Source of the DNA: Trypethelium eluteriae
Lineage: Eukaryota
NCBI GenBank assembly: GCA_051942245.1
Contig: JAVECL010000004.1
Coordinates: forward strand, 123,950-143,949
Reading direction: 5' to 3'
Length of the DNA stretch: 20,000 bases
Both the position numbers and the translations under genes were made by a program. The notes under the pieces are model-generated. The model did not search any database and was not told where the DNA came from. It worked only from the letters and a program-made list of their open reading frames with translations. Below are positions 10,109 to 19,492 of the stretch, piece after piece. The number at the start of each line of letters is the position of its first letter. Within the stretch, counting starts at the first letter, position 1.

Positions 10109-11116
10109 ACTAAATTATTTTCCAACTGGTGTTTATTGCTTTGTCACAAGCACTCTGCCTCACTTTTTATGATGAAACCAGATGAATGAACAACTTTCCC
10201 AAGACAGTGACAGAATGAGTGCTGTGTGAGAAGGCGATTCTTTGAGAAGGGGTACTTTTGTATTTGCGTCTTATGCGAAGATAGCCGAGAGTACTGCTTT
10301 TATACTAATTGTGCAATGCCATTAAGAGAGCGCGTTCTGTCATGGCCATGTGGTGACCAACATGATTTTTCTCGATTGAAGATCGACCAGGCTGCGGAAG
10401 CAACGCATAGAGACCACCAATCGTCTATCAGAACGATAAACCAATGATCTTACTTCCTCATCGTATTCAAATGGAGTGCGGGATGAGGTAACGGACCACT
10501 GACACAGAGCTCAGTTAGATGATGCATAATTGCGGCAACCCGACGGCATGCCGGGCATGGGTTGAATGGTCGACCTCGGATCTATTCATTGTTCAGTATG
10601 GAAGTTAGCTGTCTGGTTCATATACTGGCTGGTCATAATATCTCTTGCTCCTTTTCAGAGAAAGACGAAAGTAGAAGCTACGAAATAAACAAGGGTCCTG
10701 GGGTTACTATCTTGGTGGTCTTTCTCGGCACGTCTGGCACTGTCCGTTCTCAAAAGTCCTGGAGAAAGATAGGATAAAAGATAAGAAGATGTGAAAGGAT
10801 ATAGACTAAAATTTTTGGCACATCCTAAATATTGTGGGACATGGGAGTAGCGCCACCTATATACAGAGCTGCGCAGAGGTCCATGCGCATAGCCTGGTGA
10901 CACATTACATGACCTTTCATCTCATCTCCAAGCACAGAGATCAGAAGCACAGCTGCATAGAATAATGGATGAGAATAGAAAGCTGTAGATATGCATAAAT
11001 TCAATCGCAAAATCATAAAAAATAATTCTCATGAAAAGGAGTTTTTGGTAAAAAAAAAAGAGACGAAAGCTAGATAGAAGAGATGAAAAGTGAAAATATT
11101 AAAATTATCAATTATT

Positions 11117-11123
11117 TATATAA
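11117..11123 (+). promoter_or_regulatory. TATA-like element upstream of tRNA gene
   Basis: TATATAA 31-37 nt upstream of tRNA position 1, within an AT-rich tract where TFIIIB/TBP would be expected to bind. Confidence 0.5.
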
Positions 11124-11190
11124 TTTTACATGCTCTGAAGCCCAGAAAGCGGCGGCATTGTGGCCGAGCGGTTATGGCGCAGGTTTCAGG

Positions 11191-11202
11191 ATTATCCGTG
11201 TT
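11191..11202 (+). other. Canonical tRNA intron (position 37/38), ATTATCCGTGTT
   Basis: Starts one base 3' of the anticodon. Removal gives the 7-nt loop TTCAGGT. The antepenultimate G could form the anticodon-intron pair with U32. Confidence 0.8.
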
Positions 11203-11229
11203 TACCTGTGGGAAACTTCGTGGGTTCGA

Positions 11230-11283
11230 GTAAGTTGTATGAGTGAATTGTTTTGTTTACATCCGTAATAATTGTGGACGCAG
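11230..11283 (+). other. Spliceosomal-type intron inserted in the tRNA T-loop (58/59)
   Basis: 54 nt, starts GTAAGT, ends GCAG, has a T-rich middle and a non-consensus branch candidate (CGTAAT 11264-11269). Removal yields GTGGGTTCGAATCCCAC. Confidence 0.75.
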
Positions 11284-11308
11284 ATCCCACCAATGTCAAT
11301 TGCTCTTC

Positions 11309-11317
11309 TTTTTTTTT
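11309..11317 (+). terminator. RNA polymerase III oligo-T terminator
   Basis: T9 run beginning 11 nt after the discriminator base. Confidence 0.8.
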
Positions 11318-11809
11318 CCCCTCCCAGGTCAACATCATGTATCAGAGGGTCCCAAGTCTTTTGAATTTCTGAGAACAGTACCCTGCTTTTTTCTTTTTTG
11401 CTTCAGTGTGTCATAGCGAGGGTATTCACTGACGGTAGAATATTATTTGGTTATAGAACTAATGGAGTGCAACCTCAACTCTACTGCCAGAATCTTTTGA
11501 GTCAACTCATGTCTATTTGCGACGTAGCGATAATCACACTGGTTTAGAGGTAAGCGATGCTTTGCTTTCTTGAGGAATTACTAGTGGTGGATTGGTCGAG
11601 CCTTAAGCTCCGAATAGCGGGCAGCTCCGCGGATGCGCTCCTCCCAACTAACGTCTAGAGCTCCTCGCGCTCCTCTACGATATGACTATTTCATCTTCCT
11701 TCTGTCTTTCCCTATGCCTCGCCTGTCATTCTCGGTTACGGAGTCGAGATATGGTGAACGTGCTACGCTCCATACTTTGATTGATTTACGATAGAAGCTG
11801 GCCCACAGA

Positions 11810-13612
11810 ATGGCGTTCTTGTTTGGTTGGCGAAAAGTACCCGCCCACTTAATCCTTCTGGTATCTATATTTGTTCCTGTTCACGCTCTCATTATTTCAA
11901 GCCCAATAACAATACTCACGAGATGGAGCTCCGAAGCATCTCTTAACCAAGGCCAACCCATGCGCCACATCGATACCAGCGACCAAGATGAGCAATACTC
12001 CCGCGCTTTCCCATCTCCTGTGAGTACAACCAACTTGAATCCTGCTCCCGGCTTTGGGGTACTTGAGGACCTTCACGGTGCGCTAGAAACTCTACAGTCC
12101 CGTTTCTTTGAGGTATGGCTTGGAACATGGCCAGACGCGATAGATTGGACCGCGGCGGTCATAGGTACACACATCTCAGACGGGCTCAGCTCGCTCACCA
12201 AATCTCTCGAATATCTCTTGCCCTTTGACGGCACTTCTGCAGAAGAGAACCCGATCGCAAGAGCGCAGGCAGTAGAAAACGAAATCAACAAGTATTTTTC
12301 GCAGAGCGTGGCGTATTACTTTGGGGAGGATGCATTCGCAATCCGCACTCAAGCATACGATGACATGCTTTGGGTTGTACTGGGCTGGCTTGAAAGCGTG
12401 AAATTCATTAATTTCCACGTTAATAAGCATTACCCTAGGATTCTGCATTCGACTACACTAAAGCAATCACCCTGGTACGGACACCAATTCCAGCCATCGT
12501 TCGCTCATCGCGCGCGCGTCTTTTACGAACTCGCTTCAAAGGGCTGGGATACCACGCTTTGCGGGGGCGGCATGGTCTGGAATCCCAATCTAGGCCCCTA
12601 CAAGAACGCCATCACGAACGAACTCTTTATCGCCGCCGCAATCGGCATGTACCTTTATTTCCCAGGCGACCCGAATGACTCTCCCTTCCTCGACGGCGTC
12701 CGTACGCGCTCGATCCCAAGAAAACGTCATGATGATCGCTTCCTCGCCGCCGCTATCAATGCCTACGGCTGGCTCCGTAACGCCAACATGACCAATACAC
12801 AAGGCCTTTATGTCGATGGCTTTCACATCAAGGGGTGGGGCAAGAACGGTTCTATCGGTACGGGTGAGTGCGATGTTCGGAATGAGATGGTCTATACCTA
12901 CAACCAAGGCGTCATTCTCTCCGGCTTGCGTGGACTTTGGGAAGGTACTGGTAATACCTCATACCTCACAGACGGACACCGACTTGTCCGGAACGTCATT
13001 GCGGCAACTGGGTGGTCAGCGACAAACGGAAAGCGCACCAGAAGTTGGTCTGGTCTTGGGCGCGATGGCGTGCTCGAGGATTACTGTGATAGCAGGGGGG
13101 ATTGTAGTCAAGATAGTCAAGGTTTCAAGGGAATCTTTTTTCACCATCTCACCCTCTTCTGCGAACCGCTCCCATCAGAGGCGACTATGCCAGGTAGGAC
13201 CTATCCAGCCACACCCGAGGAAAGGTTTCTCCACGCGCAAAGCTGTCGGGAATACGTGCCTTGGGTCGCGCATAATGCGAATGCCGCTCTGAAAACAAGG
13301 AACGACGACGGCCTTTTTGGGATGTGGTGGGGATATCATACGGTCGAAACTACCTCCGATTCTTCATTCGAGATACCGTCACTACCGAATTATGCGGAGG
13401 ATTACCGAAATACTGCCAAGGTACCTTTGGATGGCTTCTATGGCGAGCACGACTCATCGATTAGAAAGAAAGAAGACCATGACTGGGCAAATGCAAATAT
13501 CCAAGACGTAAATGATCGAGGGAGGGGTAGGACTGTAGAGACGCAGGGAAGTGGCGTTGCTGTTGTCAGGGCATTGTGGGAATTCATTCATATGTTCCGG
13601 CATGATAATTGA
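11810..13612 (+). CDS. Glycoside hydrolase family 76 (alpha-1,6-mannanase-like, six-hairpin), probably secreted, 600 aa, intronless
   Basis: YDDMLW catalytic di-Asp motif, CGGGMVW...YKNAITNELF, GLYVDG, YTYNQGVILSGL, FKGIFFHHL; hydrophobic N-terminus; no obvious GPI-type C-terminus. Confidence 0.92.
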   Translation: MAFLFGWRKVPAHLILLVSIFVPVHALIISSPITILTRWSSEASLNQGQPMRHIDTSDQDEQYSRAFPSPVSTTNLNPAPGFGVLEDLHGALETLQSRFFEVWLGTWPDAIDWTAAVIGTHISDGLSSLTKSLEYLLPFDGTSAEENPIARAQAVENEINKYFSQSVAYYFGEDAFAIRTQAYDDMLWVVLGWLESVKFINFHVNKHYPRILHSTTLKQSPWYGHQFQPSFAHRARVFYELASKGWDTTLCGGGMVWNPNLGPYKNAITNELFIAAAIGMYLYFPGDPNDSPFLDGVRTRSIPRKRHDDRFLAAAINAYGWLRNANMTNTQGLYVDGFHIKGWGKNGSIGTGECDVRNEMVYTYNQGVILSGLRGLWEGTGNTSYLTDGHRLVRNVIAATGWSATNGKRTRSWSGLGRDGVLEDYCDSRGDCSQDSQGFKGIFFHHLTLFCEPLPSEATMPGRTYPATPEERFLHAQSCREYVPWVAHNANAALKTRNDDGLFGMWWGYHTVETTSDSSFEIPSLPNYAEDYRNTAKVPLDGFYGEHDSSIRKKEDHDWANANIQDVNDRGRGRTVETQGSGVAVVRALWEFIHMFRHDN

Positions 13613-15105: not shown

Positions 15106-15747
15106 TTAATCAACTTCGTCGACATCCTCTCTCTTCTCATCTCCAGGACTCCTGCTCCGATTCCTGCCTCCTCTGTTCGGTGCTCCCCTTCCCCCAGCCC
15201 TTCGCGCTCCTTTTTCCGGCGGTGGTCGAACGAAAGCGAAATCTACCGAAATTGTCTGGTCAAGAAGTTTGGTTCCGTTGGCGCCTTCAATTGCTGCCTT
15301 CGCTTCTGAGTGGGTAGGATACTCGATCAGGACGTAGCCCTAGAATAATGGAGCTTGTTAGCCTTACTATTCAAAGGGAACGAATGTCTAGAAGGAAAGA
15401 GGCAAATGTGAAGTGCACAGAGCTCTGCGCTGCCAGAGTCTTAAGGTCAAAGGATGTGTCTTGAATTCATGCCGCCCAAAACGCCTTAAATCCATGCAAC
15501 TTACTTTCACGTATCCAGTTCTTCGATCGAGATTGAGGTGTAAATTCTTGATCTCCCCATAATCGCCGAACAGCTCCGTCAAATCCTCCTCCGTCGCCTC
15601 CTCATGCACATTGGTCACCATGATAATCCAGCCCTCTATGGAACGTACTGCAACAGCTCCATCCGTGGTACGTGTATCGGGAGCAGCACTGGTACCATTC
15701 TTGGGGGGTGGGGAGGCAGCGTCAATGTCCATTTCGGTGTCTGCCAT
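15106..15747 (-). CDS. RBM8A: RNA-binding protein 8A / Y14 (exon junction complex RRM subunit); exons 15747-15505 and 15339-15106 (158 aa)
   Basis: [21 protein letters not shown]...[29 protein letters not shown]...VDFAFVRPP, with an RG/RS-rich tail (RNRSRSP). 165-nt intron GTAAGT...GCTAAC...TAG. Confidence 0.96.
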
Positions 15748-17005: not shown

Positions 17006-19492
17006 TCATGGAGGTCGTTTCAAATTGGCTGTCTTCCGCGATGTAAACGCTCGAATGTCATGTAAGCTGTCGCGAACTAGTGCTGGTTCCTTTTGTGGGG
17101 AATCCGTCGAGTCACTAGTAGTAGAATCAGTGTTGCTCCGCCTTAAAGCCTCTGTTTGCGTCATTCTCGACTGATCAAGCCACCACTCGACGTCTTCAGG
17201 AGACTTTAACCGCGGTTGCTCAAATTTATGCGTCGCACATAAGTGGCTTCTGAGGGCGTCCTCGTCCCGAAAGACATGAATGCCGTAGTGAGAGCAGGTA
17301 TCATATACACACGCGTATTGATATCGACGAGGCGGGTTCTTGATTGGAACCAGTGGCACAAACTCGTGCTCCTCGATAGCATGACGTCGGAGATCATCTC
17401 GGCCGAAGAATGAATGAGAATTTGGTCCTTTGCATGTTTGTTCTTGGCACACGTAAACATAATCATGGGCGAATGCTTCCCATCTATCGCCACGTGCTCG
17501 CTCACGGCGAACCTGCACAAGCTCCTCTGCACATCGTAGTAGGTCCTCATGCGCGTTCCTGTGTTGTAGATGTCTGGGAGTTAGGCTGGTTAGCTAAGTG
17601 AAGACACCACTAGTGCTTGTAATGTTTGCGTACTTCTTTGTAAGACTAAGAATGCGTTCTTTTGTTCTGGCACCGCTCGTACTTGGCTTCCATTCGTCGA
17701 GCTTCATATCTTTGAGAGCGGACCCTACGTTCTGGCGAAAATAAGTGATCCCAAGGGCTTTGCAGTCATCTCGTACATCCTGATGTGTTGATTCGGACTG
17801 AGTTGCGAGCTTACTGAGCAGCCCCACGAGGTTTCCCCAGTCACGAATGTATCCCTGATTGCGTGGAACTTTACCTTTATCTGAAGGCCGGCCGGTACCA
17901 ACTGAGAGTAATAGCCTTGGATTCTGAGCATGCATCTGACGAACTTCCTTGAGCGCGAGTGAAGAGGGGTTATTAGCCCCCATACCGCCATCCCGGAATG
18001 TACGGTCACCAATTTCGATGTTCGAGAAGTATTTGGGAGCTGCGGCAGTAGCCCGAGCAATCCTCCAGATCTCATGGGTGTGAGCAGGACCAGGATTTTT
18101 ATGACCCCTGATATCATCCCGCTCGGAAAGAGGAGAGGGATGAGGATGATCATATGTGCGGAAAAGGTATGAGGACTCGTAGGCTTTATTCGTCCCTGGC
18201 CCGTGAGCTATAATGATTCTATTTAAGACCGTCAGTCTGGAGCCAATATCGTCAGGACCGAATCTGCTTGGGAAAGACCGTTTGGGATTCGCATAGACCT
18301 CAATCACCACAATGACTCTTGGAAGCTTGGAAGCTCCAATGCCATAAAATGACAACGTCTCAATTCCCACAATATCTCCTCCAGCCTGCTCCAACATTGT
18401 GGCAAACCATGTATTTTCCACTCTCACAGAAAAAGGAGGCTGCACTTACGTCCTGCATTTCTTTGGATTACTCAAAAATGGTATCTTCTCCTTCGTATAC
18501 GGCTCCTCGTTATTATGTTGTCCCATCTCCTCGGCAAGTCCTACGTTGATGACCTTCTGGATGGCTCGTTCCATCTGCTTTGGACCGTATTTTGGCGCGA
18601 GTAGATCTGCGAATTTAAGTTGAACATGAAGTGGTCGTGGCTTTCCAAATACGTCGTTCCCCACTGTATCGTATTGACTGAGCGCTGCATCAATGTTCAT
18701 TTGCATTCGGCCAAGCATGATAGCACTGAGTCCGCCTGTACTTGTGCCCGCAATGTAGTCGAAGTAATGGTGTGGCTTGTATGCTGAGTCGCTCTTCTCA
18801 AAAGTTGCGTTAACGGATTCAGTAAGATCATGCTCGTCAGGATTGGTCTTCGTTCGAGAGGGTGGCCGTGATGAAGAAGCAGGTGGCGTCATTGATCTAT
18901 ACCAGGGGTAATCTCCACTACTGATATTTGGCTGCCAGTAGTCATCCTCTGAAGGCATCTGACCCGGATTGATCTAACGAGATTCAGTATTGTCCGAGGT
19001 CAAACACATGAGTATCGGGGAGCGTAGGATGTGCAAGGGATGGTCGATTTAGTCAATCGAGCCGCTGGAAAGTATCTGCGAACACGTAGCGGTATAAATT
19101 AAGAAAAAAATTGTTTGTTGGCCTGCGATGGGTTCTTCCTCGGGAACTAGATTGAGTCGCAATTCCCATTTCCTACTACTGACCTTATGCTTCGGACGTA
19201 ACCCCTGCTCGATCTGAGCAACCAGGCTCATCAGCCTCTTGACTATCAGCAGCGAGGAGTAGCCTTTGACTCCACCACCGTCTAGACTCAATATCATCTT
19301 TCGGGACCATGGTGAGTCGCGATCATTATCGGAGACGTCGACTCGCGTTCGGGTAGGCAATGGAGGCTGAGAACCTTCGTCGTCCGGGTATCCATGCGTT
19401 TCTTCTGTGTCCGCTGGACTTGAATCCAGAGAGCCCTCCTGTGTTGGAGTTGGAGGATGTGTATTTAACAGTGGAACGATTCCTCGCAACAT
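17006..19492 (-). CDS. Patatin-like phospholipase with C-terminal C2H2-like zinc fingers; exons approx. 19492-19184, 18973-18450, 18218-17634, 17573-17006 (~661 aa)
   Basis: ILSLDGGGVKG glycine loop, FDYIAGTSTGG nucleophile elbow, ARATAAAPKYF, RDGG catalytic Asp, LLSVGTG. GT-AG junctions join four ORF-track fragments in frame. The first intron acceptor is uncertain (exon 2 starting at 18973 or 18958). Confidence 0.88.

Follow-up and report, generated by a model that had tools for sequence, protein, structure and literature searches.

A tRNA-Leu(CAG) gene with a canonical 37/38 intron and a probable mRNA-type intron in the T-loop

The window, i.e. the whole stretch of 20,000 nt of DNA that was analysed, has a G+C content of 48% and codes for a fungal rhodopsin-domain protein, a GH76 protein, a carboxylesterase, an F-box/WD40 protein, a patatin and an RRM protein, a gene content in keeping with a filamentous ascomycete. 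At nucleotide positions 11154–11298 it also contains a tRNA-Leu(CAG) gene made up of three exons and two introns, which ends in the discriminator A73 at 11298 and is on the plus strand, as are all window features below for which no other strand is given. An initial annotation had described a tRNA-Leu(CAG) gene split in its T-loop, and this is borne out by reading of the sequence and by an ARAGORN call obtained once nucleotides 11230–11283 are removed.

The gene has the properties of a class II tRNA, with acceptor strands GGCATTG and CAATGTC followed by A73, and a Leu/Ser-type D arm. Exon 1 (11154–11190) encompasses the 5′ strand of the acceptor stem, the D arm, the 5′ strand of the anticodon stem, the anticodon CAG (11187–11189) and G37; its D arm includes the A-box-like sequence TGGCCGAGCGG at 11161–11171. 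The anticodon stem is CAGGT/ACCTG, and its loop, TTCAGG...T, is interrupted between positions 37 and 38 by a canonical 12-nt tRNA intron (11191–11202) that ARAGORN finds with its intron option (-i). This is the expected substrate of the tRNA splicing endonuclease (TSEN). Exon 2 (11203–11229) has the 3′ strand of the anticodon stem, a variable arm of 11 nt, the 5′ strand of the T stem and the T-loop residues T54 to A58. The T stem is GTGGG/CCCAC, and the order of elements in the T arm is TTCGA, GTAAGT...GCAG, AT, CCCAC. Between positions 58 and 59 there is thus a 54-nt mRNA-type (GT-AG) insert at 11230–11283, whose boundaries come from the sequence, ARAGORN, a deletion control and a comparison of introns. 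Exon 3 (11284–11298) supplies T-loop positions 59–60, the 3′ strands of the T and acceptor stems and the discriminator A.

With the insert removed, ARAGORN -i calls a mature tRNA-Leu(CAG) of 79 nt with the 12-nt 37/38 intron, and all four stems pair to form a cloverleaf with A73, G37 and a TTCGAAT loop. The call on the deleted sequence thus confirms that excision at GT-AG gives the canonical loop. The description of an otherwise intact cloverleaf holds for the stems, which do pair; it passed over the second interruption, i.e. the 37/38 intron. A run of nine T residues resembling a Pol III terminator is found at 11309–11317, 11 nt past the gene, as had been stated, and a TATATAA sequence at 11117–11123 is at −37 to −31 of the gene.

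Standard scanners overlook the gene. ARAGORN, whether in default mode or with an intron search, makes no tRNA call in the intact window, and Rfam gives no tRNA match in it at the gathering score and none at E ≤ 10 around the locus; a permissive threshold applied to 11100–11340 yields a chance sRNA match only. It had been suspected that scanners could miss the gene and proposed that they be run with and without 11230–11283, and the comparison is clear-cut: no call on the intact sequence and tRNA-Leu(CAG) after removal. In a deletion control, each GT..AG segment of 35–100 nt on both strands of the window was removed singly and the product given to ARAGORN. Only one deletion of 9,736 led to a tRNA call, and that was the deletion of 11230–11283. 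The same control on 15 related metagenome loci, described below (30,139 deletions), produced tRNA-Leu(CAG) genes and one poor tRNA-Glu, and nothing else. The ‘tRNA-Glu’ (97 nt, from L003=L015) was rejected as spurious, because it folds poorly and its strand is not the one that GT-AG requires. Among these loci and the window together, ARAGORN called only one of the 16 intact genes, and that one was misfolded.

The insert is also found in a second assembly. A 14.9-kb contig of public run X1 spans 11050–11400 including the insert, which contradicts an assembly artefact, with the proviso that X1 may be the source sample of the window itself. Over this region window and contig differ only once, by A>T at 11148, a site 6 nt ahead of the tRNA, and they agree throughout the gene. 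No second X1 contig or joint was found over 11050–11400 at a likeness of at least 80%, a search that would reveal a near-identical intronless paralogue and miss diverged ones. An introner-like, multi-copy character of the insert is thus not seen, as one X1 contig covers the region at this likeness, the sensitivity for a 54-nt piece being uncertain. In X2, a small-share air-metagenome run, two short pieces less than 90% alike fall at 11050–11128, outside the gene.

The T-loop insert has the donor GTAAGT at 11230–11235 and the acceptor CAG at 11281–11283. Its length and acceptor are what is expected of a short intron with a YAG end, and the inserts of related loci are 50–63 nt long. As had been noted, other genes of the window use this donor too: the RRM (Y14-like) gene has it at 15504 and the patatin gene at 18449. 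The statement that local introns measure 47–60 nt is only partly upheld: candidates that bridge open reading frames in the carboxylesterase and patatin genes, taken without a homology check, are 47–65 nt long, but the RRM intron has about 165 nt. This intron (15340–15504, minus strand) reads GTAAGT...CTAAC...TAG. Ab initio prediction of mRNA introns for the window gives 98 candidates, a noisy list that serves as illustration only. Candidate branch sites in the T-loop insert are TGTTTAC (A11259, 24 nt from the 3′ end) and CGTAAT (A11268, 15 nt from it). They are non-consensus, as had been pointed out, and no YTRAY motif is found. The insert also has a single TTTT at 11251–11254.

Metagenomes were scanned with a pattern consisting of the T-stem/loop, GTNNG, a gap, AG and the rest of the T arm; since GT..G and AG were required, inserts of other kinds at 58/59 are invisible to the scan. 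Fifteen loci matched, and all 15 are tRNA-Leu(CAG) genes with a 50–63-nt GT..AG insert at the identical 58/59 site. Nine distinct T-loop introns are represented (L001; L002=L005; L003=L015; L004=L014; L006=L011=L013; L007; L008=L009; L010; L012), together with five distinct mature sequences. Removal of the T-loop insert gives a tRNA-Leu call by ARAGORN in all 16 genes, window included, and removal of all inferred introns gives an 82-nt tRNA-Leu(CAG) in each of the 15 metagenome loci. The 37/38 intron is absent from all 15 relatives, unlike the window gene. The pattern had no match in a bacterial/archaeal genome collection and none in viral contigs, and the window-type 5′ half (23 nt) had none in a genome contig collection. 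The T-loop intron appears to be old, as sequence comparison shows tRNA-Leu(CAG) genes to be interrupted at this very site in five or more other fungus-like lineages.

The scan pattern forced GT, G at +5 and a terminal AG, and therefore conservation at those positions proves nothing. Unforced positions are more informative. Among the nine distinct metagenome introns, A is present at +3 in eight (and in the window), T at +6 in eight and a pyrimidine at −3 in all nine, and each of the nine has a single CTAAC or CTAAT with the branch A 9–12 nt from the 3′ end. The 5′ splice site is GTRNGT-like, being GTAAGT in the window, GTACGT in eight of the nine distinct relatives and GTTCGA in one. The YTRAY branch motif (fungal consensus CTRAY/YTRAY, looked for 5–40 nt before the 3′ splice site) is missing from the window alone, i.e. 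from one of ten distinct introns, the best sequences there being the two candidates given above. What is conserved in the family are elements of a U2-type intron: GTAYGT, CTAAY and YAG.

The rest of the intron has diverged. Across lineages the intron interiors are 44–55% identical (random 30-mers about 55%) and the flanks 55–63% (random 58%), with near-invariant exons. In the close relatives L003, L008 and L010 the flanks are 89–91% identical, the exons 100% and the intron 82–86%. An alignment of related loci had been proposed as a test, and it gives the outcome looked for: GT/AG and exons are kept and the interior of the insert has diverged. This is the pattern expected of a spliced intron that is selected only at its signals. 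The structure of the gene is thus established, and so is the conservation of the intron site and its splice signals in other lineages. Avoidance of T runs inside the introns was considered as a sign of Pol III transcription and dropped: the longest T run is two to three in all nine metagenome introns, and shuffled sequences reach four or more T residues in just 6–46% of cases, which is not significant.

Five of the nine distinct metagenome genes have a second GT..AG intron with a CTAAC or CTGAC branch motif. In four it is in the D-loop, after GCCGAG, with lengths of 55 nt in L001, 66 nt in L002=L005, 69 nt in L004=L014 and 61 nt in L012. In L006=L011=L013 it is a 57-nt intron with an AAG acceptor between positions 6 and 7 of the acceptor stem. 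The genes concerned are L001:1262–1451(−), L002:800–1002(+), L004:282–495(−), L012:2883–3083(+) and L006:2887–3076(+). The 5′ introns of L006 and L012 can be aligned, yet they are 9 nt apart (L006:2857–3010(+) and L012:2853–3010(+)); common parts are a GTTCGT start, TCCCAGT, ACTGG and CTAACT..GAAT. The exon piece ATGGCCGAG follows the 5′ intron in L006 and precedes it in L012. This 9-nt shift looks like intron sliding or re-insertion, such as reverse splicing would give.

Other signatures of the relatives are of interest. Taken with the exon G before it, the 14-nt start of the 5′ intron reads GGTTCGT..(T/A)CCCA in L001, L006 and L012 and resembles the spliced T arm/B-box. Local alignment against shuffled sequences gives P values of 0.0015, 0.002 and 0.03, respectively; these introns are probably homologous, and thus the values reflect about one event. 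Such a start might stand in for a TFIIIC site or be left over from the origin of the intron. The motif GCTTAGTCATA is found 13–27 nt upstream of the tRNA in L002, L003, L004, L006, L008, L012 and their duplicates, in flanks that have otherwise diverged; the window, L007 and L001 lack it. This conserved motif may belong to the promoter, or it may signal orthology.

Not all copies look healthy. In L004=L014 the six nucleotides GTTCGA are duplicated in tandem at the donor of the T-loop intron (L004:297–359(−), L014:1469–1531(+)), the D-loop intron has the donor GTACCT, and the D-loop itself shows a T>C change. This paralogue may be degenerating, or else the first, unusual donor may be the one in use. 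L007 and L012, both intron-bearing, have contig names with one assembly prefix, and L002, L003, L004, L006 and L009 have one metagenome id. One organism may therefore hold several paralogues, all with the T-loop intron.

The relative L007 shares the gene context of the window. The window tRNA gene is followed by a GH76 open frame on the same strand (11795–13612), and in L007 a tRNA gene is followed by a same-strand GH76 frame of 602 amino acids that is 55% identical to the window GH76 over 550 amino acids. In both, the tRNA is 0.5–0.9 kb upstream of GH76, with similar spacing, and a TATA-like hexamer is found at −37 (TATAAA in L007). The F-box/WD40 neighbours upstream in the window were not found in L007 within the 2.7 kb covered. 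The GH76 linkage, the spacing and the hexamer indicate that the two genes are most likely orthologues, and the extent of divergence that they are long separated: the flanks are 59–60% identical, i.e. at the random level (58%), and the intron interiors 44%, with the exons kept. Five pairs in the acceptor stem and three in the anticodon stem have changed on both sides between window and L007, all are still Watson–Crick, and no stem pair is broken. Genes of the L003 and L001 types show further compensatory changes in the acceptor stem. A dead gene would not show such changes, and thus it would seem that the gene did not die on arrival of the insert.

A run of 5–11 T residues starts 9–15 nt past the discriminator in all 16 genes, and an A-box-like sequence is kept in the D arm. 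The B-box is split in the DNA of all 16 genes by the T-loop intron. Position +4 of the intron is C in all nine distinct metagenome introns despite their randomised interiors, and 10 of 11 positions of the B-box consensus are matched as a result. As this C keeps the B-box nearly complete, it faintly suggests that TFIIIC still has to bind the interrupted DNA, i.e. that these genes would be transcribed by Pol III. In the window +4 (11233) is A, and the B-box place has 9 matches of 11 against the same consensus, the poorest of the set.

The explanation we consider the most probable, at a level well short of certainty, is that of a working tRNA-Leu(CAG) gene whose precursor is made by Pol III and carries two unrelated introns, the one in the T-loop being spliceosomal. 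The spliceosome is most likely the agent that removes the 54-nt intron, because no bulge-helix-bulge (BHB) is conserved, TSEN is described at 37/38 only and U2-type elements are conserved. The GT-AG spliceosomal reading of the initial annotation thus gains support from the shared site of the relatives, their signals, the synteny and the missing BHB. Pol III would transcribe the gene by way of the A-box-like D arm, the partly kept B-box, the TATA-like element at about −37 and the T9 terminator. The spliceosome would recognise GUAAGU in the T-loop, the weak branch site and CAG, excise the intron and join A58 to A59, so that the TTCGAAT loop is restored. The T and D loops would dock only after T-loop splicing, and removal of the 37/38 intron would therefore follow it: the tRNA splicing endonuclease and ligase, measuring from the folded body, would take out the 12 nt. 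End trimming and CCA addition would come last.

The main rival, which we think unlikely, accepts the family as real and holds that the window copy was recently inactivated, with poor splicing or transcription, and that CUG is read by other tRNA-Leu genes. The missing YTRAY, the TTTT within the intron and the A at +4 could be marks of a decaying copy, and together with the poorest B-box remnant (9 of 11 against 10 of 11 in the others) and the damaged-looking L004=L014, which shows that copies can degenerate, they suggest that the family is real but that its member in the window may be in decay; the variable arm, at 11 nt, is short as well. However, the four stems pair, the donor GTAAGT and the acceptor CAG are complete, and the T9 terminator and the −37 TATA are kept. 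The window and the X1 contig are identical inside the gene, and the eight compensatory pair differences with respect to the syntenic L007, none of them a broken pair, also argue against inactivation.

A point against the preferred reading is that, U6 snRNA apart, Pol III transcripts are not known to be spliceosome substrates. In another rival reading the spliceosome acts on a Pol II transcript, e.g. a GH76 leader, in which the tRNA is embedded and from which it is freed by RNase P/Z after co-transcriptional splicing. Spliceosome recruitment is normally tied to Pol II. As the tRNA precedes GH76 on one strand in the window as well as in L007, there is room for such a Pol II host transcript, and the interruption of the B-box in all 16 genes would fit it. 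On the other hand, the T5–T11 run past the 3′ end in every gene and the intact A-box-like D arm are not expected of it, other members are in other gene contexts (L006, L011 and L012 are linked to dDENN), and the C at +4 in nine of nine, which keeps the B-box at 10 of 11, fits selection for a Pol III promoter. A Pol II host thus seems improbable, and more so than inactivation of the window copy.

According to PMC10485636, tRNA introns of eukaryotes are at 37/38 and are removed by proteins only, the four-subunit eukaryotic endonuclease acts at 37/38 only, with red algae as the known exception, and T-loop introns of the BHB type are found in archaea and red algae. As such T-loop introns exist, and as the 58/59 site lies in a loop, the insert might be a BHB-type intron at a non-canonical position that is cut by the tRNA splicing endonuclease. 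Folding of the 10 distinct sequences with RNAalifold reveals no conserved BHB, i.e. no 4-bp helix with flanking bulges: the T stem and two trivial pairs are all that is found, and there is no covariation in the intron. The fold of the window precursor is no better than that of shuffled sequences (z = −0.3), and GTAYGT, CTAAY and YAG are conserved instead. Together with the limitation of the four-subunit enzyme to 37/38 introns, as given in PMC10485636, this leaves a BHB-type intron very improbable. A self-splicing group I or group II intron was rejected, as the insert has only 54 nt, as opposed to a ribozyme core of hundreds of nucleotides, and has no Rfam match. An assembly artefact or an accidental tRNA-like fold, which might be suspected of one locus in one window on which standard scanners are silent, is the least credible of all, given the X1 contig with the whole stretch including the insert (possibly from the same sample), the 15 independent metagenome loci of the same architecture and the single call among 9,736 deletions.

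Spliceosomal removal of the T-loop intron, our preferred reading, can be compared with several known systems. Schizosaccharomyces pombe U6 and Rhodotorula hasegawae U1, U2, U5 and U6 genes have mRNA-type introns, and lineages differ in where their snRNA introns are, which points to gain through reverse splicing. These are short GT-AG introns inside a small structured non-coding RNA gene, like that of the window, and they have a branch motif, as do the metagenome relatives, the window having candidate branch sites. The stretch of RNA that they interrupt is likewise conserved and critical for function, and the U6 gene is transcribed by Pol III. Unlike the U6 and snRNA hosts, tRNA is not a component of the spliceosome and has its own protein-based splicing, and the window gene has both kinds of intron. 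The idea of intron entry at the catalytic centre is thus not directly applicable, since tRNA is not a spliceosome component. Spliceosomal introns are also present in rRNA genes of lichen-forming ascomycetes, i.e. in non-Pol II genes, and introner-like elements of Dothideomycetes attest to active intron gain in fungal lineages; these have another class of host gene, and the window insert is not multi-copy in X1 at 80% likeness. The mRNA-type intron of fungal U6 genes is the closest known case. The mRNA-type introns of fungal snRNA genes were reportedly described by Tani and Ohshima in 1989 and 1991 and by Takahashi et al. in 1993 and 1996.

Non-canonical tRNA introns are also known from archaea, the red alga Cyanidioschyzon merolae and nucleomorphs (Soma et al., 2013, cited in PMC10485636); they are similar in that they interrupt the gene outside 37/38, including in the T-loop, that several may be present in one gene and that gene finders miss them. 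They differ in having a BHB or a relaxed variant that is cut by the endonuclease, whereas the window family has no conserved BHB and conserves GTAYGT, CTAAY and YAG. The canonical 37/38 intron, which is processed by TSEN and tRNA ligase, is represented in the window gene by the 12-nt intron; the 54-nt insert is at 58/59 instead, a site at which, going by PMC10485636, no action of the four-subunit enzyme is expected. Three types of intron in eukaryotes are described in PMC12530127. A search of the open full-text literature, with subscription journals largely outside its scope, found no description of a spliceosomal intron in a tRNA gene. A tRNA host for an mRNA-type intron, with both kinds of intron in one gene, thus appears to be undescribed.

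The findings may have a broader meaning. We lean, by a narrow measure, towards the view that in an ascomycete-like clade all tRNA-Leu(CAG) genes carry an ancient spliceosomal intron in the T-loop, and that CUG decoding there would depend on the spliceosome acting on Pol III pre-tRNAs. The introns would still be mobile, as the extra introns in the D-loop and acceptor stem and the 9-nt shift might indicate, and they would be the fourth class of tRNA intron, one not described so far, and would mean that the annotation of fungal tRNAs has a gap that goes unnoticed. As ARAGORN and Rfam overlook genes split in this way, fungal genomes may seem to be without tRNA-Leu(CAG) although it is present, and its apparent absence may therefore be false. 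If the preferred reading is true, the spliceosome is linked to tRNA biogenesis, and Pol III transcripts beyond U6 can be spliceosome substrates. An order would be imposed on two splicing systems that act on one precursor, and these genes would offer natural material for studies of intron gain and movement.
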